A stretch of 60,066 bases of DNA from Candidatus Omnitrophota bacterium (GTDB lineage: Bacteria > Omnitrophota > Gorgyraeia > Gygaellales > Profunditerraquicolaceae): positions 1 to 60,066 of the forward strand of contig JBFMBZ010000044.1 of NCBI GenBank assembly GCA_040754615.1. The letters are read 5' to 3'. The notes under the pieces are model-generated. The model had not been told where the DNA came from, ran no database searches, and worked only from the letters and a program-made list of their open reading frames with translations. Both the position numbers and the translations under genes were made by a program. The stretch's first letter is position 1; each line of letters starts with the position of its first letter. Positions 30,418-43,969 of the stretch are shown in pieces.

Positions 30418-31620
30418 CTATGCTCTTCTAATCCCGGGGTAAAACAAATTCAGGAATAAAAGGTATGTTATACAGATAGAGCCGCCGAGCATAATCGTAA
30501 ACGAAATCCCAATATACTTTGAAAGCCCTCCTATAACAAGGCTGCCCAAAGGAGCAAAAACCGACAGGATTATCACAAATAAGCTCATTACCCTGCCCCG
30601 GAATTCTTCTGTCACATTAAGCTGTAGCAACGTATTCACCAGGGCTGCGGAAGTAAAACGGGAGGCTCCTATAAACACTAAAGCCAGAAGCGAAAATGCA
30701 AATATCTTAGATAAGGAGAAGGCGACGACCGAAGAGGCAAAAATAAAAGCGGCAAACATAAGCAGCCTTCCCTTTGCTTTAAAATCTCCCATTTGGATTA
30801 AAATAAACCCTCCGATGAGTGCGCCAAACCCGGCAGAAGACATCAGCATGCCTAAGCCTTTTACATCTACCTTTAATATGCTCTTGGCGAAAATCGGCAT
30901 AAACGTGCCGTAGCCCGAACTAAAAAAAGTCACGACCGCAACCGTAACAAGCAGCATTAAGATAAGCCGGCTCTCCCTTAATATGTTGAGGCCCTCTTTT
31001 AAGCCCTGCCAAACTGTCTTTCCGGCGTTGCAAGAGATATCAATAACCTTTTTCCTTCTCACAAAGAAAAGCGATATTATTATGGCCAGCGAAGAAACGG
31101 CATTGGCGTAAAAACAGCTGGATATGCCCAACGAAGAAGCAATGATTCCGGCAAGCGCCGGGCCGATTACCTGGCTGGACTGAAAAGAAATTGAATTCAA
31201 GGTAATGGCATTAAAAAGCCTTTCCTTATCAACCAGTTCCCTTATAAACGCCTGCCTGCAGGGCAAATCAAAGGCCCTGACTATGCTGCTTAAAAAAGCA
31301 ATCAGCCCTACGTAAAAAGGAGTAATGAGGTTTGCCTGCGTTAACACGCCCAAGGTAAAGGCTAAGAGCATAAAAAAAGCCTGCGTGACGATTATAATTT
31401 TTTTCCTGTCTATCCTGTCGGCTAATACTCCTCCGAAAAGAGTCAGGCTAAACATGGGGACCGCGCCGATGAAATCAATTAACCCTAAAAGAAACGCCGA
31501 ATTGGTGAGTTTATAAATGAGCCAGCCCAGGGCAATGACCTGTATCCAGTCGCCGATTAAGACTATGGTCATACCAAACCAGTAGAGCCTGAAGTCCCTA
31601 ATTTTGAGCGCAGCGAGCAT
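30418..31620 (-). CDS. MFS transporter (EntS/MFS_3-like)
   Basis: 400 aa with 12 TM helices. The N-terminus FRLYWFGMTIVLIGDWIQVIALGWLIY is typical of this MFS subfamily. Starts 7 nt after the last hydrogenase-operon gene. Confidence 0.75.
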   Translation of the reverse strand: MLAALKIRDFRLYWFGMTIVLIGDWIQVIALGWLIYKLTNSAFLLGLIDFIGAVPMFSLTLFGGVLADRIDRKKIIIVTQAFFMLLAFTLGVLTQANLITPFYVGLIAFLSSIVRAFDLPCRQAFIRELVDKERLFNAITLNSISFQSSQVIGPALAGIIASSLGISSCFYANAVSSLAIIISLFFVRRKKVIDISCNAGKTVWQGLKEGLNILRESRLILMLLVTVAVVTFFSSGYGTFMPIFAKSILKVDVKGLGMLMSSAGFGALIGGFILIQMGDFKAKGRLLMFAAFIFASSVVAFSLSKIFAFSLLALVFIGASRFTSAALVNTLLQLNVTEEFRGRVMSLFVIILSVFAPLGSLVIGGLSKYIGISFTIMLGGSICITYLLFLNLFYPGIRRA

Positions 31621-31627
31621 TATTTTG

Positions 31628-32239
31628 TTATGATTTTAAAACTGCCTCCCGGCGGCAGCGCGGGCAGAGAATTTTTATTCTGTCAGGACGGTTAAATTCA
31701 ACTTCTTTTTCCGAAACAGGTTTCTCCTTTAAGGCGAGGTCGGAAGATTCAAGATAAGAAAGAATAAGCGAAGGGTTGGAAAAACATAATGGGCCCAGTC
31801 TCTTTGCCACCCACACATACTGGTCGACAGGCACAACGGGCTCTTGACAACAGGAACAGAGGACGAATTCTTTTTCTATGGCCTGCTTTAAATCTTCTCT
31901 TTTTTCCGTAGTGGCCAAATCAAATTCCCGGGAAAGGACTATGCCTTTTTTCGTCGGGCAATTGGCTTCGCACTGGCCGCAGAAAATACAGATATCCCAA
32001 TGCACGGTAAGGACCCTTTTTGGCTTCCCGTTTTCTTTCTTGTCCGCAAAATCAATCGCCCTTGCCGGACAAACCTGGCTGCAGGCAGTGCAGCCCATGC
32101 AGTCCTCTTCGTGAAAATAGGGCCTGCCGCGGAACCTCTCAAAAGGCGTATGCGGTTTAAAAGGAAAGGGGCTGGTGTAAGGCCCTTTTATTAATGCCCT
32201 GATTGCCTCTTTTAATTCCCTTAATTTAGGATACCTCAT
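31628..32239 (-). CDS. 2x[4Fe-4S] ferredoxin-type subunit (NuoI/HycF/MbhN-like) with Cys4 C-terminal extension
   Basis: Cluster motifs CMGCTACSQVCP and CIFCGQCEANCP, plus an extra CSCC...CPRC pair in a ~70-aa tail. Confidence 0.75.
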   Translation of the reverse strand: MRYPKLRELKEAIRALIKGPYTSPFPFKPHTPFERFRGRPYFHEEDCMGCTACSQVCPARAIDFADKKENGKPKRVLTVHWDICIFCGQCEANCPTKKGIVLSREFDLATTEKREDLKQAIEKEFVLCSCCQEPVVPVDQYVWVAKRLGPLCFSNPSLILSYLESSDLALKEKPVSEKEVEFNRPDRIKILCPRCRREAVLKS

Positions 32240-32558
32240 CTTCTTCGTATTTGTCGCAAACAGATTTTTCCCAAAGTTTTACCCCGGACTTATGCGCTCC
32301 CCGGGCGAGTGCATGGGCAGCCACAGGGGAAGTAAGCAATAAGAAAACGCCCACCATAACCGCTTTGATACCTGTAGGCGTAAGGCCCTTCAAGATGAAA
32401 GTGCCAAAAAGTATACTGCAAGTCCCTAATGTCACGCATTTTGTAGTTGCCTGAAGCCGGTTATAGACATCCGGCAGCCGCAAGAGCCCGACGCAGCCGA
32501 ATATATCAAAAAATAAACCTATGGCAATAAAAATGTAGGCTACAACCTCATTCATCAA
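32226..32558 (-). CDS. Mrp/Mnh antiporter subunit G-like (MbhC-like)
   Basis: 110 aa, 3 TM. GLLRLPDVYNRLQATTKCVTLG is the MnhG signature. Confidence 0.8.
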   Translation of the reverse strand: MMNEVVAYIFIAIGLFFDIFGCVGLLRLPDVYNRLQATTKCVTLGTCSILFGTFILKGLTPTGIKAVMVGVFLLLTSPVAAHALARGAHKSGVKLWEKSVCDKYEEDEVS

Positions 32559-32919
32559 ACCCTCTTCCTTCCAGATATTTGGCTAATGCCAGCGCTCCGA
32601 TAAAACTTTGCAAAGCCCAGGCAATGCCGATATCCAAATACCAGTCTCTTCCCGTCGGTATGCTTAGAAGCGCGCAGAACCCCACGATGAGAATCCCCAG
32701 CGTGTCAATCGCAACTGCGCGGTCTGCCGGAGTTGGCCCGAGCATAAGCCGGACCAGGCAGAACAGAAAGCAGAGCATTAAAATAAAAAAACAGCGCGCA
32801 AGTAAAGGAGACTGCCAGCCCAAGAGGCTGGGGATAGGATAAATTAAGATGCCTGCTAAAACAGTTACTATTGCAATGAGCCCCAAGGCGTAACGCATGT
32901 CTTTTGAAATTTTAAGCAT
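32548..32919 (-). CDS. Mrp/Mnh antiporter subunit F-like (MbhB-like)
   Basis: 123 aa, 3 TM. The LLGPTPADRAVAIDTLG motif is typical of MnhF. Confidence 0.75.
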   Translation of the reverse strand: MLKISKDMRYALGLIAIVTVLAGILIYPIPSLLGWQSPLLARCFFILMLCFLFCLVRLMLGPTPADRAVAIDTLGILIVGFCALLSIPTGRDWYLDIGIAWALQSFIGALALAKYLEGRGFDE

Positions 32920-32925
32920 AATCGG

Positions 32926-33420
32926 TTATTCAAAAATCCTCTTTAAAATGCTTTCGAAGTTTTTCACGATTTTTTCAGTCGCGGCGATTTCATCGGTAGC
33001 CTTGACGTCAATCCAGTGTATATACAATACGCCTTCCTTCTGGTTGATGTCTACGGACAAGGTCCCCGGGGTAAGGGTAATGGAATTTGCCAGAAAAGTT
33101 AACCCTGTATCGGATTTAAGCCTGGTCTTTACCTTTACAATCCCCGGGTTAATGGGAAGTTTAGGATGAAGCACCCGCAGCGCCACATCAATATTTGCCT
33201 TTAAACATTCCCATAAGAAAAGAGGCACATAATAACAAAACCAGATATAGCGGGAAGCGTGTTTAAAATGCGATGCCCGCCTTATAAACATATCTCCGGT
33301 GAGCAAAGACACAAACGCGGCTACAAAAATCCCGACTAATAAATGCTGGATATCTATTGGCCAGGTCAAAAGCAGCCAAACCAGGAATCCGAAAACAAAT
33401 AATATTATTCTGCTTTTCAT
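32926..33420 (-). CDS. Mrp/Mnh antiporter subunit E-like (MbhA-like)
   Basis: 164 aa. NIDVALRVLHPKLPINPGIV...ANSITLTPGTLSVDI is the MnhE pattern. Confidence 0.75.
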   Translation of the reverse strand: MKSRIILFVFGFLVWLLLTWPIDIQHLLVGIFVAAFVSLLTGDMFIRRASHFKHASRYIWFCYYVPLFLWECLKANIDVALRVLHPKLPINPGIVKVKTRLKSDTGLTFLANSITLTPGTLSVDINQKEGVLYIHWIDVKATDEIAATEKIVKNFESILKRIFE

Positions 33421-34919
33421 TTAACCGCTCCAAAGACTGCCTGAGAATATTCTGTGCCCCGCGCCAGGACAGAAACCGCATTATCCAGGAAAGGCCTAAG
33501 CGCCGGTATGAGCATAAGGCCGCCAAACACACAAATAACCGAAAGCGCAATCATCGCAAGCTTCATAAAACCGGGGGCCTCTTTGATATCCTTAAACTTC
33601 TCTTTCAACTCTCCGAAGAAGGCATATTTTTCTACCTTCATAAAGGAAGCCAAAGTCAATATGCTTCCTATAACTGCGCACAGCGCATAAACCAAGTAGC
33701 CTTTCTCAACGCAGGCCAGGATAATTATCAACTTGCTAAAAAAACCGTTAAAGGGCGGAATTCCGGCAATAGACATTGAAGCAATAAGGTTTGTTGAGCC
33801 GGTCACCGGCATAATTTTATTCAATCCTCCGGTTTCTTTTAAATCGCGCGTTCCCGCAGCATAATCCACTGCCCCGGAATTCAAAAAGAGGAGCGACTTA
33901 AATACGGAGTGGTTAAATAAATGAAACAACCCTCCCAGGATGCCTAAGGGCGTACCCAGGCCTATACCTAAGACTATATAACCTATCTGGCTGATGGAGT
34001 GATACGCCAAAAGCCTCTTTAAATCCCACTGCGAGAGCGCTAAAATTACCGCGACTAACAACGATAATGCGCCCAGGAAAGTCAATATGGAAAGGTAATT
34101 TGGGCTTGAGCCGATTACATTAAAAAATATCCGCACCAAAGCATAGACGCCTAAAGTCTTGATTAAAACTCCGGAAAGCATGGCTGAAATGGATGCCGGA
34201 GCAGAAGGGTGCGCGTCAGGAAGCCAGGCATGAAAAGGCACGAGTGCCGCCTTTAAACCAAAACCCATCAGGAATAACACGCCGACAAACGGAACCAAAA
34301 ATTTATTCTGCTGGAAGCTGATAACTCTTGAGATATCCGCCATATTCAAGGTGGAGGTAAAACTATAAAGGAAGGCAATGCCGATAAAGATGAAGCTGGA
34401 GGCAACCGAGCCCATAATCGCGTATTTAAAAGACGCTTCCAATTCCTCTGCTTCCGTGCCGAAGGCAACCAGGGCATAGCTTGCGATGGAAGCAATCTCC
34501 AGGAATACAAAAAGGTTAAATAAATCTCCGGTAACGATAATCCCGTTCATTCCGCAGAGCATCAAAGAAAATAAAGTAAAGAATTTAGTTTTATCGGTGT
34601 ATTTCTGCATGTAACTGACAGAGTAAAGCGCGACAAAAAACGCGATTAAGTTTACGGTGACCAGCATAAAGCTGGTTAAGCCGTCCAATACCATGGAGAT
34701 GCCAAAAGGCGGCATCCATCCTCCGATTTTATAGACCAGGATTTTCGCGGGAAGAGACTCTACCAATATGGGGGTATAAAGAGATAACGATAGAAGTAAA
34801 CCACTGCTTATGCATGCGGCGATATCCGCAAAGCGCTTGACAAATCTTCCCAAAAGCGAGATCAGAAATGCGCTTGCTAAAGGTATGATCACAAAAAAAG
34901 GAATAAGGTTCTCTCTCAT
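33417..34919 (-). CDS. Mrp subunit D / NuoM-NuoN-like proton-translocating antiporter subunit (MbhH-like)
   Basis: 500 aa, ~14 TM. Proton_antipo_M core with WLPDAHPSAPASISAMLSGVLIK. Confidence 0.85.
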   Translation of the reverse strand: MRENLIPFFVIIPLASAFLISLLGRFVKRFADIAACISSGLLLSLSLYTPILVESLPAKILVYKIGGWMPPFGISMVLDGLTSFMLVTVNLIAFFVALYSVSYMQKYTDKTKFFTLFSLMLCGMNGIIVTGDLFNLFVFLEIASIASYALVAFGTEAEELEASFKYAIMGSVASSFIFIGIAFLYSFTSTLNMADISRVISFQQNKFLVPFVGVLFLMGFGLKAALVPFHAWLPDAHPSAPASISAMLSGVLIKTLGVYALVRIFFNVIGSSPNYLSILTFLGALSLLVAVILALSQWDLKRLLAYHSISQIGYIVLGIGLGTPLGILGGLFHLFNHSVFKSLLFLNSGAVDYAAGTRDLKETGGLNKIMPVTGSTNLIASMSIAGIPPFNGFFSKLIIILACVEKGYLVYALCAVIGSILTLASFMKVEKYAFFGELKEKFKDIKEAPGFMKLAMIALSVICVFGGLMLIPALRPFLDNAVSVLARGTEYSQAVFGAVK

Positions 34920-34924
34920 TATTT

Positions 34925-35263
34925 TTAGCCCTTAAGCTTCTTTATCTTGGTAATATCAAAGGTGCCGTATTTTTCATAGATGCGTATGGCGATAGATATA
35001 ATCAAAGCAGTCACTCCCAGGCCGATAACAATTGAAGTAAGCACGAGGGCCTGCGGCAGGGGGTCAACCATCTGTGCGATCAGCTGGCCCTGGGCGTCAA
35101 TGGGCGCCCTGCCATGGTATTTATAGCCTACGAGCACGAAAAATAAGTTCATGGAGTATTCAATAATGCCTAAGCCCACAATCATCTTCACGAGGTTACG
35201 TTTGCGTAATACCCCGTAAAGCCCAACGCAAAATAATACAAGGCATAATACATAAAGCAGCAT
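34925..35263 (-). CDS. Mrp subunit C / NuoK-like (MbhG-like)
   Basis: 112 aa, 3 TM. LRKRNLVKMIVGLGIIEYSMNLFFV is the NuoK/MnhC pattern. Confidence 0.8.
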   Translation of the reverse strand: MLLYVLCLVLFCVGLYGVLRKRNLVKMIVGLGIIEYSMNLFFVLVGYKYHGRAPIDAQGQLIAQMVDPLPQALVLTSIVIGLGVTALIISIAIRIYEKYGTFDITKIKKLKG

Positions 35264-35265
35264 AG

Positions 35266-35712
35266 TTATTCCTTTTTAGATTTCTCTAATATTACCAAAG
35301 CCAGAAATATGGCAAATAAACCCACTCCTACCTTGATGCCGATAGATAAGTTGCTGAATATTATGGTTCCTGAGCTGAATAATCTAAAGGGCTCGCCCTT
35401 GGAAAAAATATTCAAAAAGAATGATCCGCCTAAGAATCCCAACATTGCCACTAACAAAAACATGATTGCGCCTATGCTCTCCAGGTTTGAAGCAAGATCT
35501 TTGGAAACCTTAGAAACCGCCACGTCTTTGCCGAAGGCAAGCATCATATGCACAAAAGACAATGCCACGATTACCCCACCGGCAAAACCTCCGCCCGGAG
35601 AAAGATGGCCATGCAAGATTATATAGATACCGAAAAGCAGGATAAGGCCGATAGTCAGGCGGGTGATAGTTTTTACTATCAGGGTCATCCCTGTTTTTGG
35701 GTTATCAATCAT
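35266..35712 (-). CDS. MnhB-domain membrane subunit (MbhF-like)
   Basis: HGHLSPGGGFAGGVIVAL is the MnhB signature. 148 aa, 4 TM. Confidence 0.75.
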   Translation of the reverse strand: MIDNPKTGMTLIVKTITRLTIGLILLFGIYIILHGHLSPGGGFAGGVIVALSFVHMMLAFGKDVAVSKVSKDLASNLESIGAIMFLLVAMLGFLGGSFFLNIFSKGEPFRLFSSGTIIFSNLSIGIKVGVGLFAIFLALVILEKSKKE

Positions 35713-36233
35713 TTTTCTATCTTTTTCCTTCCAGGCCGGCGCAAGACCGCCATTATCCCGATTACCGAAGTAAATAATACCGTTGCCTCACCCAGCGTAT
35801 CATAAGCGCGAAAATCCAATATTACCGCCGTCACCAGGTTTACTGCCCCGGTCTTTGCCGTGCCTTCTGCCAGATATTTTTTTACCACGACCATAAGCGG
35901 CTCGCCAAAAGCAGGCAGTTCCGTTATGGCCTGCCAGGCGAAGAAAAGAAAAACCGCAACAAATGCCAGGGTAGAAATGGTATTAAATACCCAGCGGCCC
36001 TCGATAACCAAAGGCAGGTCTTTTTTGATGGTGGCGCGGATAAGGATAATTAAACAGAGGATTTCAACTACCAGCTGCGTAATGGCTAAGTCCGGAGCCT
36101 TAAGGACTAAAAAGGCAAGGCAGAGGGCAAAACCCACTGCTCCCACGGCAATGACGCTTGATAGCAAATCCTTTACTTCAATTGCCACGATTGCCGCGAA
36201 AATCATGAATATTAAAAGTATATACAGTTCCAT
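35709..36233 (-). CDS. MrpA C-terminal/MbhD-MbhE-like membrane subunit (DUF4040-type)
   Basis: 174 aa, 5-6 TM. APDLAITQLVVEILCLIILI is typical of DUF4040/MbhD. Confidence 0.65.
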   Translation of the reverse strand: MELYILLIFMIFAAIVAIEVKDLLSSVIAVGAVGFALCLAFLVLKAPDLAITQLVVEILCLIILIRATIKKDLPLVIEGRWVFNTISTLAFVAVFLFFAWQAITELPAFGEPLMVVVKKYLAEGTAKTGAVNLVTAVILDFRAYDTLGEATVLFTSVIGIMAVLRRPGRKKIEK

Positions 36234-36234
36234 C

Positions 36235-37893
36235 CTATTTGACTAACAGCGCCCAGAATAAACCCATCATCCCTAAGAGTGTCCAGACTAAATAAGTAGG
36301 CAAAACTCCGTTATGCAGGTATTGCAGGAATTTACCTATCCCAAATACCCCCTTCTTGAGCTCTTCATAAATATCAAAAGAGCCGGATTCTGCCCTGCGG
36401 TAAATATTTTTTATTGCCCCGAAGTCTTTTATGGTGTTATAAAACTCCGTGCCCGCAACTTTATTTTCTATTCCGATTATTTCCCCTCCGGTAAAACAAT
36501 TCTCCTTACGGATGCTTTTTTTGACGTTTCCGAGATAAAAAATTGCAATCCCTATGATTATTCCGCTCGCCACTAAAATGGCGCTTAAGTATGAATAGAA
36601 ATTATCCGCCCCGGGCGCATAACCTATGGCAGGAAAGATAAGGTATTTCAAAGGTAAGGCATAAGCAAATATTCCGAATGCCACACAAAGAAAACTAAGT
36701 ATTAACACCGGTGCGCTCATAGACAAGGAAACCTCCCCTTTTTTGGAATGGCTTGGCTTTTCAATTGCTTCTCCCAGAAAAGCCGAATGTAATAATTTCA
36801 TGAAGCTGGCGAGGGTCAGGCCGGAACCGAACAATGCCAAAATTAAACAAAATATACCGACGGCCCGTAAACCCGGCCCTTGCGACTCTAATTTTGTAAC
36901 CACTCCCTGATAAACCATGAGCTTGGAAAAGAAACCGTTAAGCGGCGGGATGCCGGAGATAGATAAGCTGGCGATAAGACAGGATATATAGGTAAGAGGC
37001 ATGCTCTTGGCCAGGCCGCCTAATTTATCTAATTCAACAGTATGAGTGCGCGACTCTACATTACCGCTTGTAAGAAAGAGAGAGGATTTATATATTGCAT
37101 GATTAAGCATATGGAATATTCCGCCGGCGATGCCTATGGGGTTAGCAGTGCCTATCCCCAAAACCATATAACCTACCTGAGAAACCGCATGGTATCCTAA
37201 TAACCTCTTCATATTATGCTGCACTAAAGCCATCATTACAGCCGCAATAACCGTTAAAGCGCCTACGAGCATCAAAAAGACGCTCATTGCCTCGTTCATA
37301 GCAAACAAATTTAAGGAGATCCTTGCCAAGAGATAAATACCCAGAAGTTTATCTAAAGAGGCGGGCAAAAACGCTACTACCGGAAGCGGAGCTTTTTCTG
37401 CGCAGTCCGGAATCCATGAGTGTAGAGGCATTGCGCCTGCCTTGGCAAAAGAGGCTAAGGCAATTAAGATATATGCTAAAATAGAAAGCCCGTTATCCAG
37501 GCCCAAATTTATCTGATCCATCTGCCAGGTGCCGGTCAAGCGATAAATTATGCCTATCCCTAAAAGCATAAGCGCGTCAGAGCCGCCGATGATGATAAAG
37601 GTCTTTTTCGCGGTATCAGAGGCATTCTCCGCCAGATTAATCAAAAGATAAAGAGTTAAACCTAAAAAGCCCCATAATATCAAAAGTAAAATCAGGTTAT
37701 TGGCAAGGCTTGCGCCGACAGAAGCAAGTGCGGTAAGAATAAAATAAGTATAATATTGCACCAGGCCTTTTCTCCCTTTCATAAATCCAAAGGAGTAAAC
37801 CAAGCTTAGTAAAGAAAAGAAGACCACAGCTAAGGCTATGAGCCCGCTTAAGCTATCTAACTTTAATAATGGATAAAAATTATTTATATTCAT
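36235..37893 (-). CDS. NuoL/MrpA/HyfB-like proton-translocating antiporter subunit
   Basis: 552 aa, ~15 TM. Core motifs HSWIPDCAEKAPLPVVAFL and GIAGGIFHMLNHAIYKSSLFL (Proton_antipo_M). Confidence 0.85.
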   Translation of the reverse strand: MNINNFYPLLKLDSLSGLIALAVVFFSLLSLVYSFGFMKGRKGLVQYYTYFILTALASVGASLANNLILLLILWGFLGLTLYLLINLAENASDTAKKTFIIIGGSDALMLLGIGIIYRLTGTWQMDQINLGLDNGLSILAYILIALASFAKAGAMPLHSWIPDCAEKAPLPVVAFLPASLDKLLGIYLLARISLNLFAMNEAMSVFLMLVGALTVIAAVMMALVQHNMKRLLGYHAVSQVGYMVLGIGTANPIGIAGGIFHMLNHAIYKSSLFLTSGNVESRTHTVELDKLGGLAKSMPLTYISCLIASLSISGIPPLNGFFSKLMVYQGVVTKLESQGPGLRAVGIFCLILALFGSGLTLASFMKLLHSAFLGEAIEKPSHSKKGEVSLSMSAPVLILSFLCVAFGIFAYALPLKYLIFPAIGYAPGADNFYSYLSAILVASGIIIGIAIFYLGNVKKSIRKENCFTGGEIIGIENKVAGTEFYNTIKDFGAIKNIYRRAESGSFDIYEELKKGVFGIGKFLQYLHNGVLPTYLVWTLLGMMGLFWALLVK

Positions 37894-39107
37894 TAACCTA
37901 TCACCTGCGACCTATTACCTATGGCCTTCTTCATATCTTCAGTCTTCTGTTGTGATAACTTAATCAGGTCCCAGCCATTCATAACCTTTTTATCTTTAAT
38001 CTTATCTATAACCGCCACTCTCTCAGTACAGCAATAGCAGGGGTCAACTGCTGCCAGGGTAATCGCCGTATCTGAAATCGTCTGTCCGACTGCCGCCACT
38101 TTATTGGAGGCTACATTCATATAACTGGGAGCGCGAATTTTATGCCTTACCGGCCGGTTTGTGCCGTCAGAGCGCACATAATGAAAGCACTCGCCGCGCG
38201 GAGCTTCTACCCTGCCGATGCCCTCTCCGGCGGGAATATCCTTAATGTTTGCGTCAATTTCACCCTTAGGCATTTTATCCAAGCACTGCTGGATGACGCT
38301 CACGGATTCATACATCTCCAGTATCCTGACTACGGTCTTGGCAAAGACATCCCCCTCTTTTTCCACAATCACATTCCAGCGCACCCGGTCAAAGACTCCG
38401 TAAGGATCATCCCTTCTTACGTCTATATTCACTCCGGAAGCGCGCGCAGTTGGGCCGACCACGCACCATTCCATCGCCTGACTCTTATTTAATATCCCTA
38501 CACCTTTTAGCCTTGCCTGTATTACCGGGTCATCCATTACCGCGCCCTTAAACATATCCAGGGCCGGCTTTAATTCATCCAGGGCTTTCTTTAAAACAGG
38601 CACATCATCGTCGCAGATATCCCGGCGCACTCCGCCGATTTTACTCATCCCGTAGTGGTTACGGTTTCCGCAAATCATTTCAAACATATCCAAAACCGGC
38701 TCGCGGTATTTCCACGCCCACATCCAGACAGTATTGTATCCTATGAAATGACCGGCTAAGCCCAGCCACAATAAATGGCTGTGAATCCTCTGCAGCTCAT
38801 CGATAATAGTACGGATGTAAAGGGCTCTCTGCGGCACAACATTCTGCTCTCCGCCTAAAATATCTTCAATTGCCAAAACATAAGCATAAGGATGGCTGGA
38901 TGAACATATACCGCAGATTCTTTCTACCAGGAAAGCTACCTGGTCAAAATGCTTATGCTCCGAAAGCTCTTCAATCCCGCGGTGCATATAACCGATGACA
39001 ATATCAATATCCGTGACCTTCTCTCCTTCGGTATAAAGACGGAAAAATTCCGGCTCTTCCTGTAAAGGATGGTAAGGGCCTATGGGTATGATTACTTTAT
39101 GCGACAT
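37893..39107 (-). CDS. [NiFe]-hydrogenase large (catalytic) subunit, group 4 (MbhL/HycE/EchE-like, NuoD fold)
   Basis: The N-terminal Ni-binding motif RICGICSSSH and the C-terminal DPCYCCTER are both intact. About 44 residues follow the C-terminal motif. Confidence 0.9.
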   Translation of the reverse strand: MSHKVIIPIGPYHPLQEEPEFFRLYTEGEKVTDIDIVIGYMHRGIEELSEHKHFDQVAFLVERICGICSSSHPYAYVLAIEDILGGEQNVVPQRALYIRTIIDELQRIHSHLLWLGLAGHFIGYNTVWMWAWKYREPVLDMFEMICGNRNHYGMSKIGGVRRDICDDDVPVLKKALDELKPALDMFKGAVMDDPVIQARLKGVGILNKSQAMEWCVVGPTARASGVNIDVRRDDPYGVFDRVRWNVIVEKEGDVFAKTVVRILEMYESVSVIQQCLDKMPKGEIDANIKDIPAGEGIGRVEAPRGECFHYVRSDGTNRPVRHKIRAPSYMNVASNKVAAVGQTISDTAITLAAVDPCYCCTERVAVIDKIKDKKVMNGWDLIKLSQQKTEDMKKAIGNRSQVIG

Positions 39108-39119
39108 ATTCGTTAAAGG

Positions 39120-39554
39120 TTAAGTTTTTTCCTTCCTTAAAGGGTACTTGCCTTGCGGCCATTCGTCAGCCAGAAGCAGGCGTTTTAAATTAGGATGGCC
39201 GATAAAATTAATCCCGAGCATCTCCCACATCTCGCGCTCAATCCATTCCGCCCCTATTATCAACGGAGCAATGGACATAATCTCCGGCTTCTTCTTGTCG
39301 GCAATGAGAGTGCGCACATTGATTAATTTTCCTGTGTGGTCATGCGAAAAGTGATAAATTATCTCTATCCCTTGCGGAGTATCCATCCCGCTCGCAATAG
39401 CGAAACGGCACCCTAAATCTTTAAAAATGAATTTTGCCACATCGGGGATATCCTGCGGATTAAAATCAATATAAATACGCCGCGGCGCCTTCTCGTCTAT
39501 TTTGATAACTTTTGACTTAAACTCTTCTTTTATCCTGCTTGTAATATCTTCCAT
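39120..39554 (-). CDS. NuoC-like (30-kDa, MbhK-like) hydrogenase subunit
   Basis: 144 aa. AEWIEREMWEMLGINFIGHPNLKRLLLADEWP is the Complex1_30kDa C-terminal pattern. Confidence 0.8.
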   Translation of the reverse strand: MEDITSRIKEEFKSKVIKIDEKAPRRIYIDFNPQDIPDVAKFIFKDLGCRFAIASGMDTPQGIEIIYHFSHDHTGKLINVRTLIADKKKPEIMSIAPLIIGAEWIEREMWEMLGINFIGHPNLKRLLLADEWPQGKYPLRKEKT

Positions 39555-39556
39555 AT

Positions 39557-39985
39557 TTATTTCTTCTTTCCGTTAAGTTTTTCAATCAGCTTGGCAATAC
39601 CGGCAATCATCGCCTCGGGTTTTGGCGGGCAGCCCGGGATATACACGTCAACCGGGACCACCTCATCAACCGGGCAGGGGCTGTTATATGAGTCCTGAAA
39701 CATTACCCTGCCGCAGGCGCAATTGCCTATCGCGACTACTACGCAGGGCTTGGGAGCCTGGATGTAGAGCTTGGCGAGCCTCTCCTTTGTCTTATAATTC
39801 GGGACGCCGGTAACAAGCAGGGCGTCGGCATGGCGCACGCTTCCCACTAAAACTATCCCCAGCCTCTCTACGTCATAGCGCGGAGTAAGTAAATCCAAGA
39901 CTTCAATATCGCAATTATTGCAGGGGGAAGTTGCCGCATGAAAAACCCAGATTGATTTAGTTAAGGCTTTTATTTTAATGCTCAT
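39557..39985 (-). CDS. [NiFe]-hydrogenase small subunit, NuoB-like (MbhJ-like)
   Basis: SPCNNCDIE, GNCACGRVMF and IPGCPPKPEA supply the four Cys of the proximal [4Fe-4S] cluster in NuoB-type spacing. Confidence 0.85.
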   Translation of the reverse strand: MSIKIKALTKSIWVFHAATSPCNNCDIEVLDLLTPRYDVERLGIVLVGSVRHADALLVTGVPNYKTKERLAKLYIQAPKPCVVVAIGNCACGRVMFQDSYNSPCPVDEVVPVDVYIPGCPPKPEAMIAGIAKLIEKLNGKKK

Positions 39986-39986
39986 T

Positions 39987-40898
39987 TTATCTTCCTAACA
40001 ATGCCGATATCACGGATAACCCGGCTAAAACAGTAACCGGCCCCCAGAAAAATTTCAGGGCCTGGTCAATGCGCAGCCGCGGATTGGTATTCTTAATTAA
40101 AATAATCCCGACTAATAACGCAACATATTTCAATACCAGAAATAAAAAGCTGGTGTCTTTGCCTAAAAATAGCACCGTAAGAAAAACCGGCATGGCATAG
40201 AGCAGGATTGCCTTGGTTAATTTAAAAGCTGCCAGGGGCTTGCCTGAGTATTCAATTAAGACCCCTCCCATTATCTCCTGCTCTGCCTCGGAGATTTCAA
40301 AAGGGGCAAGGCCTAATTTCGCCTGCATGCATAATATTGCAACCGCGAAAGCAATGCCTCCGGAAAAAGAGGCGATATTAGAGCCGAAGTTAATCTGATG
40401 GTTTAATATCTCGCCCATCTCGAGGGTCATGCCGCTTTTAATAATCACCGTAATCACCGATAAAATGAAAGGCAATTCATAAGCTAAGACTAATTTCATC
40501 TCCCTGGATGCGCCCTGCGAAGCCAGGGGGTTTCGCGAAGAAGATGCGCCCAGTATCAAAGAGAGCGCCGGGACAATTAGCAGGTATATTACTACTATGA
40601 GGTCAGCAGGTAAACCCTCCAGAGGAGAAATTATTGCCTGGCCTAATAACCCCGCTACCAATATGACGCTTACCAAGCCCAATAATGGCGCAATCAAAAA
40701 AGTAAGGCTTGCTCCCGCAGGCACTATGGTTTCCTTGCCGAGTAACTTTACGATGTCTACGAAATTCTGATACCAGGGAGGGCCTTGCCTCCATTGAATT
40801 CGGGCGCTCACTTTACGATCTATCCAGCAGGCTATCAGGCCGGTAATGGAAGCGAATAAGAAACCGGGAAATACGAGATAATTAAATAATATTTTCAT
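39987..40898 (-). CDS. NuoH/HycD-like membrane subunit (MbhM-like)
   Basis: WIDRKVSARIQWRQGPPW motif and 8 TM helices. Start set at MKILFNY (40898), adjacent to the upstream stop. The track start at 40931 overlaps it by 37 nt. Confidence 0.85.
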   Translation of the reverse strand: MKILFNYLVFPGFLFASITGLIACWIDRKVSARIQWRQGPPWYQNFVDIVKLLGKETIVPAGASLTFLIAPLLGLVSVILVAGLLGQAIISPLEGLPADLIVVIYLLIVPALSLILGASSSRNPLASQGASREMKLVLAYELPFILSVITVIIKSGMTLEMGEILNHQINFGSNIASFSGGIAFAVAILCMQAKLGLAPFEISEAEQEIMGGVLIEYSGKPLAAFKLTKAILLYAMPVFLTVLFLGKDTSFLFLVLKYVALLVGIILIKNTNPRLRIDQALKFFWGPVTVLAGLSVISALLGR

Positions 40899-41386
40899 TT
40901 TTTCTTCGGCTGCAGCTCTTCCCTTGACCACTTCAGGGTATGTACTGCCAGATGTTCTCCGACAAAATAAATATTTTTTTCCGGGTCTTCCTGCACCTCT
41001 TTTAGCTCTATTGCCTTTTCCGGGCAGCTAGTAACGCATTTGGGAATTTTTGTGCTTACCCCTAAGCAAAAATCACACTTAGAATCCAAATACGGGATAA
41101 AATCCTGAAAGATAATCCCGAAAGGGCAGGCAACAGAGCAGCATTTACAGCTGGTGCAGAGCATCTTATAACGTTTAATATGCCCATCAGGGGCCCTTTC
41201 CAGGGCATTATGGTAGCAGGAATTCACGCAGGGCGCTTCTTCGCAATGCCGGCAGATGGTGGCAAATGTCGCGTATTCCCTTAGCGAGGCAATCCCGTTA
41301 TTCTGGGGATGGTAAAAATAGTCGCAGGCGACCCTGCATTCCTCGCATTTGTTACAGATATCTAAATCAATGTATAAGCGTTTCAT
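40895..41386 (-). CDS. Multi-[4Fe-4S] electron-transfer subunit (HycB-like)
   Basis: Four Cys groups: CNKCEECRVAC, CRHCEEAPCVNSC, CTSCKCCSVACP and CDFC...CVTSCP. Confidence 0.8.
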   Translation of the reverse strand: MKRLYIDLDICNKCEECRVACDYFYHPQNNGIASLREYATFATICRHCEEAPCVNSCYHNALERAPDGHIKRYKMLCTSCKCCSVACPFGIIFQDFIPYLDSKCDFCLGVSTKIPKCVTSCPEKAIELKEVQEDPEKNIYFVGEHLAVHTLKWSREELQPKKK

Positions 41387-41389
41387 TAA

Positions 41390-42208
41390 TCAATCCCAAA
41401 TATCGTAAATATCCTTTAAGTCCTCGTAACTGAAAACCGGGCCGTCTTTGCAGGCGTAGAATTTCCCGATTCGGCAATGCCCGCATTTACCGAGGCCGCA
41501 GGACATATTCTTTTCCATAGATAGATAAATATCCCGGGGGTTAAACCCTAATTCCAATAATTTAAGGGTGGCAAATTTCATCATTATCGGAGGGCCGCAG
41601 ACTATGGAAACTGCCTTTGCCATATCTATAGGCAGGTCTTTTAATATAGTGGTAACTAAACCTACGTTCCCCTTCCAGCTGGGATCCCCCGTATCTACGG
41701 TTACCCGTACTTCAGTATTTTTTAATTTTGCCCAGGAAGGCAAGGATTCTTTATATACAATATCTTTCGGCGTGCGCGCCCCGTAGCATAAGACTACCTT
41801 ATTATAATTATCAATCTGGGAAAATAAGCTGAATAAGAGGCTGCGTAGCGGCGCCAAGCCCACCCCTCCGCCTACAATCAGGATGTCTTTGCCTGTAAAT
41901 TTATCTAAAGGATAGCCTTTCCCATACGGCCCGCGCACCCCCAGGACCTCTTTTGGCTTCATTTCATGGAGCCTTGAAGTAACCGCGCCTACATTCATTA
42001 TAGTCACGTCTATTCTTTCCTTTACGGAAGGGTCTGAAGAAGGTGTAAAAGGCGCCTCGCCTAAGCCGGGGATAGTAAGCTCAATAAACTGGCCGGTCCG
42101 GAAGCTGAATTCCTCTTCCAGCTTAAGCACAAAGGTCTTTATGGCCGGGGTTTCTTCTTTTATCTCTTCAATTTTAGCCTGAATGGGCAGGTATATGTTT
42201 TTCTTCAT
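41390..42208 (-). CDS. FAD/NAD(P)H-binding oxidoreductase with C-terminal [2Fe-2S] (sulfhydrogenase gamma HydG/AsrB/PyrK-like)
   Basis: FRTGQFIEL...APFTPSS (flavin-binding beta barrel), ILIVGGGVGLAPLRSL (NAD(P) Rossmann) and CGLGKCGHCRIGKFYACKDGP ([2Fe-2S]). Confidence 0.8.
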   Translation of the reverse strand: MKKNIYLPIQAKIEEIKEETPAIKTFVLKLEEEFSFRTGQFIELTIPGLGEAPFTPSSDPSVKERIDVTIMNVGAVTSRLHEMKPKEVLGVRGPYGKGYPLDKFTGKDILIVGGGVGLAPLRSLLFSLFSQIDNYNKVVLCYGARTPKDIVYKESLPSWAKLKNTEVRVTVDTGDPSWKGNVGLVTTILKDLPIDMAKAVSIVCGPPIMMKFATLKLLELGFNPRDIYLSMEKNMSCGLGKCGHCRIGKFYACKDGPVFSYEDLKDIYDIWD

Positions 42209-43274
42209 ATAATCTTCTTAAAATATAACGGATATCTATCCTTCCGGGGCAGACATCAATGCACCTTCCGCAGCCGCAGCAGGCCTGGAAACCGAGATTG
42301 GAGATAAAGAAATCAAATTTCTTAAGGTAGCGGTTACGCAGCCGCATATAACGCATGCGTAAAGGATTGGCCCCGCCGGCAACGCGGGAAAAATTCTTAT
42401 AAAGGCAGCCGTCCCAGATACGCACCCTGCGCGGGCTTCCTTCTTTTACATCGTCCGTCAAAAGGAAGCAATGGCAGGTATCGCACATAAATACGCAGCC
42501 GCCGCATTCTACGCAAGTGCGCATCTGTTCGTTCCAAACCTGCGAATTGTAGCCGGATAAAACTATATCCTGCAAAGTATCTTTTTTAGGGATTTTATGG
42601 CATGAGAGGTGCTCTTCCATGCGTTTTATCACTGAATCTCTTTTTGCGGCCCTGCCTGAGAGCTGGCCTGCGTTTGCAGGGGTAAGGATATTCTTTATTC
42701 CATCTACCATCTTCCTGGCTTTATCTGAAGCTACGTCAAGCAGGTAACCATCATTAATGGGGGATAAATTCAGGTCAAAGCCTTCAGTGACGTGCGGGTT
42801 AATCTCAAAGGCGCGGCAGAAGCAAGCCTCTTTAAAGGAGGGGCAATCCCCGGAAATAATCAATGCCTGAGCTCTTCTTTCTTTATAAAGCGCGTCTTCT
42901 TCGTTACCCTGCAAGAAAACATAATCCTGGATTTTTAAAGAAAAGATATCGCAGTTTTTTATCCCGCAGATAGCAAGCGGTTTTTGCGCGCCCTTGCCTT
43001 CCTGGCTTTCGAAATATCTGCCTATCTCCTCCTTAAAATGGGTAAAGAATGCGCGGGTAGGCTCAACTGCGCGGTATTCGCTAAAAACTATGTCTTCTTT
43101 TTTAACTTCGGAGAATCTTTTCAGGAGGTAGTCGTCAGAAGGAAGGTTAAAGCCGTATTCACATTTTACCTTAAAGGGAGTCTTGGTCTTTATGGGGACA
43201 AAAAGCTCATACTCCTGGTTTATGTGTTCGTATAAAGAGAGGAGGTTTTCGGCGCGTAAGAAATATGTTTCCAT
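42174..43274 (-). CDS. 4Fe-4S dicluster subunit (sulfhydrogenase beta HydB/AsrA-like)
   Basis: 366 aa. CVECGGCVFMCDTCHC and CCGCGRCIDVCP motifs in a HydB/AsrA-like arrangement. First gene of the hydrogenase operon. Confidence 0.7.
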   Translation of the reverse strand: METYFLRAENLLSLYEHINQEYELFVPIKTKTPFKVKCEYGFNLPSDDYLLKRFSEVKKEDIVFSEYRAVEPTRAFFTHFKEEIGRYFESQEGKGAQKPLAICGIKNCDIFSLKIQDYVFLQGNEEDALYKERRAQALIISGDCPSFKEACFCRAFEINPHVTEGFDLNLSPINDGYLLDVASDKARKMVDGIKNILTPANAGQLSGRAAKRDSVIKRMEEHLSCHKIPKKDTLQDIVLSGYNSQVWNEQMRTCVECGGCVFMCDTCHCFLLTDDVKEGSPRRVRIWDGCLYKNFSRVAGGANPLRMRYMRLRNRYLKKFDFFISNLGFQACCGCGRCIDVCPGRIDIRYILRRLYEEKHIPAHSG

Positions 43275-43311: not shown

Positions 43312-43329
43312 TTTGTGAAAAATCACAAA
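43312..43329. promoter_or_regulatory. 18-bp palindrome TTTGTGA-AAAA-TCACAAA upstream of the hydrogenase operon (candidate operator or 5'-UTR hairpin)
   Basis: A perfect 7-4-7 inverted repeat lies 38-55 nt upstream of the first hydrogenase-operon ATG. The half-sites equal the TGTGA/TCACA of Crp/Fnr- and Rex-type boxes but with a 4-nt spacer. Confidence 0.4.
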
Positions 43330-43355: not shown

Positions 43356-43384
43356 AATATAACATAATTCAATATGCTTGTCTA
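43356..43384 (-). promoter_or_regulatory. Possible sigma70-type promoter TAGACA-17 nt-TATATT for the hydrogenase operon
   Basis: 5/6 and 5/6 matches with a 17-nt spacer in AT-rich DNA. It sits upstream of the palindrome and the ATG. Weak evidence. Confidence 0.3.
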
Positions 43385-43397
43385 TAAAATTTTTTCT

Positions 43398-43471
43398 AAA
43401 TAAAGGGGACGGTTCTCTGCAGAGTCGGGGACGGTTCTCTTTAGTCTACGTTTAACGCAGAGAACCGTCCC
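43398..43471 (-). terminator. Composite terminator after the yqeY-like gene, built from one 5' arm and two copies of the 3' arm
   Basis: Minus strand: GGGACGGTTCTCT -18 nt- AGAGAACCGTCCC -9 nt- AGAGAACCGTCCCC TTTATTT. Only the second copy is followed by the U-tract. Confidence 0.55.
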
Positions 43472-43495: not shown

Positions 43496-43969
43496 TTATG
43501 GGGAATCTGGGGGACTTTTTGAGGCAGGCGTAAGCGCTTTTCTTACCAGGTCGCTTACCAGCTTCCCGTCTGCTTTCCCCGCGACTTTGGCATTTACTTC
43601 CTTCATAACTTTGCCCATATCTTTCATCCCCTGCGCGCCGGCAGCTGAAACCGCCTCTTCAATGATTTTCTTAATCTCTTCTTCCGGTAACTCAGGCGGA
43701 AGGTAGGTTTTTAAGATCTCAAGCTCCTTCAGCTCTTTATCCGCCAGGTCCGGACGGTTCCCTTTTGTAAACTGCTCAATGGAATCCTGGCGCTCCTTAA
43801 TCTGTTTTCTGATGACTGCTACGGACTCCGGCTCTTCGAGCTTATTTTTTTTCTTGGCAATCGCCGTATTAATCAATTCCGCGCGCAGGAAACTTAAGAC
43901 CGAACTCTTTAAGGAATCCTTATTCTTCATTGCCTCTTTATAGTCGCTAAATATCTTTTCTTCCAACAC
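43496..43969 (-). CDS. GatB/YqeY domain-containing protein
   Basis: MLEEKIFSDYKEAMKNKDSLKSSVLSFLRAELIN is the characteristic YqeY N-terminus. 157 aa. Confidence 0.8.
   Translation of the reverse strand: MLEEKIFSDYKEAMKNKDSLKSSVLSFLRAELINTAIAKKKNKLEEPESVAVIRKQIKERQDSIEQFTKGNRPDLADKELKELEILKTYLPPELPEEEIKKIIEEAVSAAGAQGMKDMGKVMKEVNAKVAGKADGKLVSDLVRKALTPASKSPPDSP

Follow-up and report, generated by a model that had tools for sequence, protein, structure and literature searches.

A further copy of the Hun [NiFe]-hydrogenase operon in an Omnitrophota genome, with an input arm that points to NAD(P)(H)

The window analyzed here, a 60,066-nucleotide stretch of contig JBFMBZ010000044.1 from a Candidatus Omnitrophota bacterium (assembly GCA_040754615.1), encodes on its minus strand, from position 43274 to 31628, a run of 16 open reading frames spaced -37 to +12 nt apart that together specify a group 4 [NiFe]-hydrogenase, an Mrp-like antiporter module and a sulfhydrogenase-type flavoprotein arm. 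Judged by gene content and motifs, the locus is a further copy, gene for gene and motif for motif, of the published Hun operon, and the names hunA to hunP are used accordingly. Domains were called with Pfam and NCBIfam, and relatives of solved structure were ranked by sequence search against the PDB. The order and identities of the 16 genes had been proposed in a sequence-only reading of the window, and the two domain collections recovered every listed element exactly where that reading had placed it. In what follows, SHI and MBH are the group 3b and group 4d hydrogenases of Pyrococcus furiosus, and FHL is the group 4a formate hydrogenlyase (FHL-1) of Escherichia coli.

hunA, 42174..43274, minus strand: SHI-beta/AsrA-like multi-[4Fe-4S] protein, 366 aa (Pfam Fer4_22, 1e-25)
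hunB, 41390..42208, minus strand: SHI-gamma/AsrB-like flavoprotein with FAD, NAD(P) and [2Fe-2S] sites, 272 aa (Pfam FAD_binding_6, NAD_binding_1, DHODB_Fe-S_bind)
hunC, 40895..41386, minus strand: HycB/CooF-like ferredoxin, 163 aa (Pfam Fer4_11; four CxxCxxCxxxC-type motifs)
hunD, 39987..40931, minus strand: NuoH/HycD/MbhM-like membrane subunit with about 8 hydrophobic segments (Pfam NADHdh, 1e-59)
hunE, 39557..39985, minus strand: NuoB-like hydrogenase small subunit with one [4Fe-4S] cluster (Pfam Oxidored_q6, 2e-26; proximal-cluster cysteines CNNC...GNCACG...GCPP)
hunF, 39120..39554, minus strand: NuoC-like subunit (Pfam Complex1_30kDa, 3e-27)
hunG, 37893..39107, minus strand: [NiFe] large subunit (Pfam Complex1_49kDa and NiFeSe_Hases)
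hunH, 36235..37893, minus strand: first antiporter-like (NuoL/MrpA-type) subunit, 552 aa (Pfam Proton_antipo_M, 1e-60)
hunI, 35709..36233, minus strand: fused MbhD- and MbhE-like subunit (Pfam MbhD, 2e-16; MbhE, 1e-9)
hunJ, 35266..35712, minus strand: MnhB-like subunit (Pfam MnhB, 2e-25)
hunK, 34925..35263, minus strand: MnhC/NuoK-like subunit (Pfam Oxidored_q2, 7e-27)
hunL, 33417..34919, minus strand: second antiporter-like (MrpD-type) subunit, 500 aa (Pfam Proton_antipo_M, 4e-68; NCBIfam PRK08376, 1e-118)
hunM, 32926..33420, minus strand: MnhE-like subunit (Pfam MNHE, 6e-48)
hunN, 32548..32919, minus strand: MrpF-like subunit (Pfam MrpF_PhaF, 3e-17)
hunO, 32226..32558, minus strand: MnhG-like subunit (Pfam PhaG_MnhG_YufB, 4e-25)
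hunP, 31628..32239, minus strand: NuoI/HycF-like connecting subunit with two [4Fe-4S] clusters (Pfam Fer4 families)

For hunD the likelier start codon is the ATG at 40898, which would overlap the hunC stop codon as ATGA, and not the GTG at 40931.

The translation of hunG retains both Ni-binding CxxC pairs, in the L1 motif RICGICSSSH and the L2 motif DPCYCCTER, just as the sequence-only reading had stated, and continues for 41 aa beyond the CxxCxxR signature. Its best PDB match is the MbhL subunit of MBH (6cfw_L, 3e-85), followed by HycE of FHL (1e-75). The two CxxC pairs, the NuoB-like proximal-cluster cysteines and the NuoH- and NuoL-like membrane subunits together identify the complex as a group 4 [NiFe]-hydrogenase, and the C-terminal extension, along with the maturation protein HypD detected in the genome (C74, 5e-146; the only hyp gene searched for), supports the prediction that the hydrogenase is a working one. 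More than 100 database clusters match HunG at 79-89% identity, and all of the named ones are Candidatus Omnitrophota. Across that phylum, HunG-type proteins share 62-87% identity and are set apart by a clear gap from the next group 4 type, at about 45%. This second type of large subunit is found in dozens of Omnitrophota genomes, often beside Hun (e.g., G048:C15:7993-9078 and G312:C23:9157-10257).

The two genes that head the operon encode homologs of a group 3b diaphorase. HunA is closest among solved structures to the beta subunit of SHI (9nez_B, 3.6e-34), with which its cysteine motifs align; these motifs are kept in 30 species, and the NCBIfam matches of HunA to ShyB (8e-45) and HydB (2e-40) both lie under the cut-off. 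HunB is closest to the gamma subunit (9nez_C, 5.7e-54) and resembles the AsrB/HydG/ShyC models of NCBIfam, with the AsrA/AsrB and ShyB/ShyC matches all falling below equivalog cut-offs. Across 46 species, at 60-77% identity, HunB is invariant in its flavin site (GEAPFTPSS), its nucleotide site (GGGVGLAPLRS and VCGPPxMMKF) and its [2Fe-2S] site (CGxGKCGHC...C), and the motifs of all three sites line up with those of the NADPH-dependent SHI gamma subunit. The earlier assignment of a sulfhydrogenase-type input module thus stands, and a role of the first two genes as an NAD(P)H module of this kind is well supported by homology and motif conservation. HunC and HunP are nearest to HycB (7z0s_B, 2e-14) and HycF (7z0s_F, 3e-18) of FHL, respectively, indicating that the peripheral arm is wired as in formate hydrogenlyase, with the donor enzyme swapped for the group 3b diaphorase pair.

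Hun can be compared with three structurally characterized enzymes. FHL (7Z0S) follows the same input logic, from donor enzyme through HycB, HycF and HycG to HycE, and likewise has a C-terminal extension on its large subunit; in Hun, however, FdhF is replaced by HunAB, and FHL lacks the small Mrp subunits. SHI (9NEZ) contains the beta/gamma diaphorase to which HunA and HunB are homologous, with cluster, FAD and NAD(P) motifs all in alignment, but it is a cytoplasmic enzyme with a group 3 large subunit and a delta small subunit, whereas Hun puts the pair on a complex-I-like membrane hydrogenase. MBH (6CFW), source of the closest solved large subunit, has in common with Hun the Mrp-derived Na+/H+ module and the NuoB/C/D/H/I core. 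In contrast to Hun, its 14 genes begin with the Mrp genes and specify one antiporter-like subunit, and ferredoxin acts directly at MbhN with no flavoprotein or HycB-like arm.

Several existing classes were rejected for this locus. Membership of group 4d, the P. furiosus type, is contradicted by the two Proton_antipo_M subunits (HunH and HunL, 36-42% identical), the different gene order and the added HunABC arm; both the second large antiporter-like subunit and the departure from the Pyrococcus mbhA-N order had been recognized beforehand and are confirmed here. The formate- or CO-linked groups 4a, 4b and 4c were set aside as the operon contains no molybdopterin or carbon monoxide dehydrogenase (CODH) catalytic subunit. 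A formate-linked variant known from the literature, with a molybdopterin protein between hunB and hunC, does not apply either: there is no such gene here, and the genome search found no molybdopterin oxidoreductase. A group 3b sulfhydrogenase was rejected since only the beta and gamma homologs are present beside a NuoD/Mbh-like large subunit, and an AsrABC sulfite reductase since the operon has no AsrC sirohaem subunit and the AsrA/AsrB model scores are below equivalog cut-offs.

The association of the input arm with the hydrogenase is strict. Scanning GTDB species representatives with HunA gave 47 loci, from Omnitrophota in nearly every case, and in all of them the genes follow the order A-B-C-D-E-F-G-H onward, with yqeY upstream in most; the order from H through P was confirmed in 10 extended loci. 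A check of synteny in related genomes, which the sequence-only reading had called for, therefore came out in its favor, with HunABC adjoining the group 4 operon in these 47 and 10 loci, so that the neighborhood is not a product of chance. Linkage was assessed in 401 evenly sampled species genomes of Omnitrophota with a HunA-type cut-off of E <= 1e-65. A HunA-type gene is present in 103 of these genomes and a HunG-type large subunit in 105, and the two occur together in 102 of the 106 carriers. On a single contig, 3.0-4.1 kb apart (median 3.2 kb), lie 89 of the 102 pairs, the others belonging to fragmented assemblies. A short variant (L010, L014, L017, L020, L031, L038 and L060) is without hunI-O and has one antiporter-like gene while keeping hunABC and hunP, amounting to an Ech/FHL-sized core (hunABCDEFG, one antiporter-like gene and hunP) that still carries the NAD(P)H-type arm. 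As HunABC is linked to the large subunit with or without the Mrp module, it is an obligate part of the HunG hydrogenase clade.

Such complexes have been described before on several occasions. An "enigmatic" Mrp-type group 4 hydrogenase with asrA-like, asrB-like and cooF-like genes was reported by Carnevali et al. 2019 (PMC6349859), who placed its nearest relatives in Zixibacteria and Omnitrophica, noted the FAD/NAD-binding domain and likened the module to NuoE/F; the Saganbacteria version has a molybdopterin (FdhH-like) protein, whereas the present genome has none. Méheust et al. 2020 (10.1101/765248) introduced the name "Mbh-Mrp-oxidoreductase type," and the present locus has in common with that type an Mrp-type group 4 hydrogenase joined to an asrA/asrB/cooF-like module. 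The 16-subunit "Hun" complex itself, hunA-P, was defined in silico only by Glass et al. 2021 (bioRxiv 10.1101/536078), with HunAB as AsrAB-like proteins, HunG as the large subunit with a diagnostic CGIC...CYCC signature and HunP as the last FeS subunit. These authors found hun in metagenome-assembled genomes of Atribacteria, Firmicutes, Omnitrophica, Elusimicrobia and Bacteroidetes as well as in Kosmotoga isolates; occurrence beyond Omnitrophota is taken from the literature, as the HunA scan reported above returned almost only Omnitrophota. HunG was scored as group 4g by HydDB, yet forms its own clade far from other 4g sequences (bioRxiv 10.1101/536078), and the Omnitrophota enzyme has been named "Group 4g, Mrp-linked," with ferredoxin assumed, by Williams et al. 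2021 (PMC8542988). Our literature search for a characterized NAD(P)H-dependent Mbh-type enzyme or for 'HydBG + Mbh' yielded only the metagenomic papers. The novelty that the sequence-only reading had implied for a diaphorase-fronted group 4 system consequently does not hold, the module beside Mrp-type hydrogenases having been noted in 2019 and 2020 and the system published as Hun. The architecture is already known, and with the same 16 genes in the same order, the CGIC...CYCC signature, the Mrp-like Na module and the terminal HunP, this copy brings nothing structurally new; what sets its lineage apart from the published operon is an MFS_3 gene behind hunP and, on the upstream side, yqeY in place of rex. 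The copy is of value as an extra instance and for the comparison it allows, namely how strictly HunA and HunG are linked, the association with Rex that relatives show and this genome does not, and the presence of Hun together with Rnf and the Wood-Ljungdahl pathway.

The rest of the genome (1.61 Mb, 90% complete) narrows the metabolic setting. Hun is its sole NuoD/[NiFe] large-subunit homolog, and the genome search turned up neither an [FeFe] hydrogenase nor complex I nor a separate Mrp; another hydrogenase or complex I that would make Hun redundant was thereby rejected, which leaves Hun as the sole way in this genome to form or use H2. Also present are rnfCDGEAB, four genes with a 2-oxoacid:ferredoxin oxidoreductase N-domain and, on another contig than hun, a Wood-Ljungdahl cluster (C24:7389-17790) encoding Fhs, FolD, MTHFR, CODH, CooF, a Pyr_redox_2 protein and AcsB. 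Since no molybdopterin oxidoreductase was found, there is no recognizable formate dehydrogenase to start the methyl branch. The combination of Hun as only hydrogenase with Rnf and a Wood-Ljungdahl cluster is found in many Omnitrophota, this one included. AcsB occurs in 75 of 106 Hun-positive as against 51 of 295 Hun-negative genomes (odds ratio 11.6), a co-occurrence that is real yet confounded by phylogeny: almost every genome of the family to which the window belongs has AcsB, with or without Hun, and Hun-positive genomes of other classes are without it. The association was therefore not used as evidence on the direction of catalysis.

Upstream of hunA, three candidate regulatory features were identified.

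terminator-like repeated hairpin, 43398..43471, minus strand: located after yqeY, GGGACGGTTCTCT...AGAGAACCGTCCCC...T-run, as read from the sequence
candidate sigma-70-like promoter, 43356..43384, minus strand: TAGACA-17-TATATT with TG extension, 10 of 12 matches, the best in the scanned region and a consensus match only
palindrome TTGTGA-N4-TCACAA, 16 bp, 43313..43328, minus strand: 54 nt upstream of hunA, of Rex-type look with a spacer 2 bp short

The putative terminator-like hairpin would shield the hun promoter from upstream transcription, and the palindrome is unique in the 1.61-Mb genome. Among relatives, a canonical 18-mer Rex operator, TTGTGAAnnnnTTCACAA, lies 18-60 nt upstream of hunA in 15 of 44, with 13-14 of 14 half-site matches and, in several, a position near -54 to -59. 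A gene for the Rex DNA-binding domain is found in 11 of the 15 box-bearing genomes compared with 5 of the 29 genomes without the box (Fisher p = 6e-4). In four of the box-bearing loci rex is directly upstream of hunA with the canonical 18-bp box between the two genes (L025:3453-4076, L026:8431-9063, L027:9208-9870 and L029:9239-9910). Given that Rex senses NADH/NAD+, Rex boxes in these relatives fit an enzyme that relieves an excess of NAD(P)H, although the substrate is not proved thereby.

The donor, direction and ion stoichiometry of Hun we infer, and the best-supported reading, which on balance we consider probable, is that Hun is an NAD(P)(H)-linked, ion-coupled and reversible hydrogenase. 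NAD(P)H (for the opposite direction, NAD(P)+) would bind HunB at its FAD, from where electrons would move to the [2Fe-2S] cluster of HunB and on to the [4Fe-4S] clusters of HunA. They would then traverse the four clusters of the HycB-like HunC and the two of HunP and reach the [NiFe] site of HunG by way of the proximal cluster of HunE. Turnover would be coupled to H+/Na+ movement through HunD, the antiporter-like HunH and HunL and the small Mrp subunits in HunI-O. The standard potentials of NAD(P)+/NAD(P)H (-320 mV) and H+/H2 (-414 mV) put the transfer of electrons from NAD(P)H to H2 at about +18 kJ/mol, a reaction that becomes favorable below roughly 10-100 Pa H2. Being endergonic at standard state and favorable at low H2, the reaction suggests that Hun is probably reversible: in one direction NAD(P)H would be vented as H2, a step that low H2 or the ion gradient would assist, and in the other H2 would be oxidized to yield NAD(P)H while a gradient is built. 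Rnf can already pass electrons from reduced ferredoxin to NAD+, and the NADH so formed would still require an outlet.

Several points weigh against an NAD(P)(H)-linked Hun. Endergonic transfer from NAD(P)H to H2 fits poorly with a two-antiporter enzyme unless the enzyme works in uptake or consumes the gradient. Ferredoxin-dependent hydrogenases, too, are regulated by Rex in other bacteria, so that control of hun by Rex would not single out a substrate. For the present copy Rex control was rejected: in this 90%-complete genome we found no match to PF06971, tblastn with two Omnitrophota Rex proteins gave a best E of 0.63, no canonical Rex box occurs anywhere, and the site before hunA is a 16-mer, so that Rex control is not claimable here. 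An A-R-x-x-K-D stretch common to HunB and SHI gamma is only a hint as regards a preference for NADH or NADPH. A search of the literature found no biochemical, proteomic or transcript evidence on any Hun complex, and those who described Hun proposed ferredoxin as its donor, where we read NAD(P)H by way of HunB (Glass et al., bioRxiv 10.1101/536078).

The published alternative, which we regard as possible but doubtful, is that Hun is a ferredoxin-driven, H2-evolving and ion-pumping enzyme like Mbh, in which HunABC wire electrons from ferredoxin to the [NiFe] site and the nucleotide site of HunB is irrelevant or regulatory. Electron transfer from ferredoxin to H+ is exergonic enough for ion pumping and fits the energetics of pumping better; among solved structures, HunG is nearest to the large subunit of MBH, which depends on ferredoxin, and the four 2-oxoacid:ferredoxin oxidoreductase genes and CODH of this genome would yield reduced ferredoxin. 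However, the ferredoxin-dependent Mbh and Ech need no flavoprotein, and the model leaves unexplained why the FAD and NAD(P) motifs of HunB are all kept under strong purifying selection in the 46 species. Proteins of the AsrB/SHI-gamma type act on pyridine nucleotides, hunA is preceded in relatives by Rex boxes or rex genes, and Rnf is already there to oxidize ferredoxin. The NAD(P)H idea of the sequence-only reading, though at odds with the published ferredoxin assumption, therefore appears reasonable in light of the HunB sequence, and its interpretation as a whole is partly supported.

A more ambitious form of the NAD(P)(H) reading, which we think unlikely, would make Hun an ion-motive NAD(P)H:H+ oxidoreductase, a hydrogen-ended analog of complex I whose nucleotide head (FNR-type HunAB with the HycB-like HunC) was recruited independently of NuoEFG; in the Omnitrophota that have Hun as only hydrogenase beside Rnf and a Wood-Ljungdahl cluster, Hun and Rnf together could take the place of an electron-bifurcating hydrogenase. 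H2 would reduce NAD(P)+ at Hun with export of ions, and Rnf would spend part of the resulting gradient on reducing ferredoxin; in reverse, the pair would vent fermentative reductant as H2.

Less probable still is a dual-input hub, in which a single Mrp-coupled machine would exchange electrons between H2 and two partners, NAD(P)H at HunB and ferredoxin at HunC, HunA or HunP, the exergonic oxidation of ferredoxin and the gradient helping to draw that of NAD(P)H. The unusually long input arm, which contains FAD and about 10 FeS clusters or more, and an organism that has ferredoxin-reducing enzymes and Rnf without another hydrogenase would suit such a hub, but the proposal is purely speculative and the operon contains no known bifurcating flavin architecture (no NfnB/GltD-like, HydB/NuoF-like or EtfAB-like subunit). 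That HunABC form a separate soluble oxidoreductase merely co-transcribed with an ordinary Mrp-Mbh, either an AsrAB-like electron-transfer pair serving a different acceptor or a sulfur/polysulfide reductase as proposed for SHI beta-gamma, is very improbable: SHI does have sulfur reductase activity and the NCBIfam matches all lie below equivalog cut-offs and so assign no exact function, but genes of the HunA type are essentially confined to genomes with a HunG-type large-subunit gene, from which they lie a fixed 3.2 kb away, hunC overlaps hunD, the operon holds no AsrC-like or other catalytic partner, and the pairing of HycB-like with HycF-like subunits mirrors the input arm of FHL.

Should the coupling of NAD(P)H and H2 to an ion gradient by Hun prove real, the complex would represent a widespread and uncharacterized class of respiratory enzyme, present in roughly a quarter of the sampled Omnitrophota species, and would bear on redox balance and energy conservation in small-genome subsurface anaerobes without bifurcating hydrogenases.

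The palindrome upstream of hunA could be a relic operator or the target of another factor. The yqeY gene (GatB/YqeY-domain; window 43496-43969) is directly upstream of hunA in about 30 of the 47 species loci, with no obvious functional link. Within this yqeY-hunA lineage the box keeps its position but not its length: L003 and L032 have 18 bp, L007, L015 and L023 have 17 bp, and the window has 16 bp. A rex gene was found in none of these six genomes, and it looks as if the operator decayed once its regulator had been lost.

Downstream, a further gene follows hunP at a distance of 7 nt.

MFS_3 transporter gene, 30418..31620, minus strand: Pfam MFS_3, 2e-53

It may be a 17th gene of the hun transcription unit, to judge by its spacing. 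An MFS_3 gene follows hunP in L010, L014, L017, L038, L054, L055, L059 and L060, all of the window's family, and not in other families. The sole MFS_3 paralog in the genome (C104:28753-30009, 23% identity) is directly upstream of rnfC, so that hun and rnf, both ion-motive redox operons, are each flanked by an MFS_3 gene.

Typical Omnitrophota-type hun operons were also encountered in records titled Planctomycetales, Planctomycetia or Margulisiibacteriota (L009, L011, L024, L025, L035 and L037); these titles are probably labelling or binning inconsistencies and not true occurrences in other phyla. Finally, HunP has 203 aa against 180 aa in E. coli HycF and 139 aa in P. furiosus MbhN, neither of which aligns past HunP residue ~136. 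Its C-terminal ~70 aa contain an extra region, C..C...CPrCRREAV, that is kept in all 7 loci covering it, and the cysteines of this tail could form a zinc ribbon or a further cluster site.

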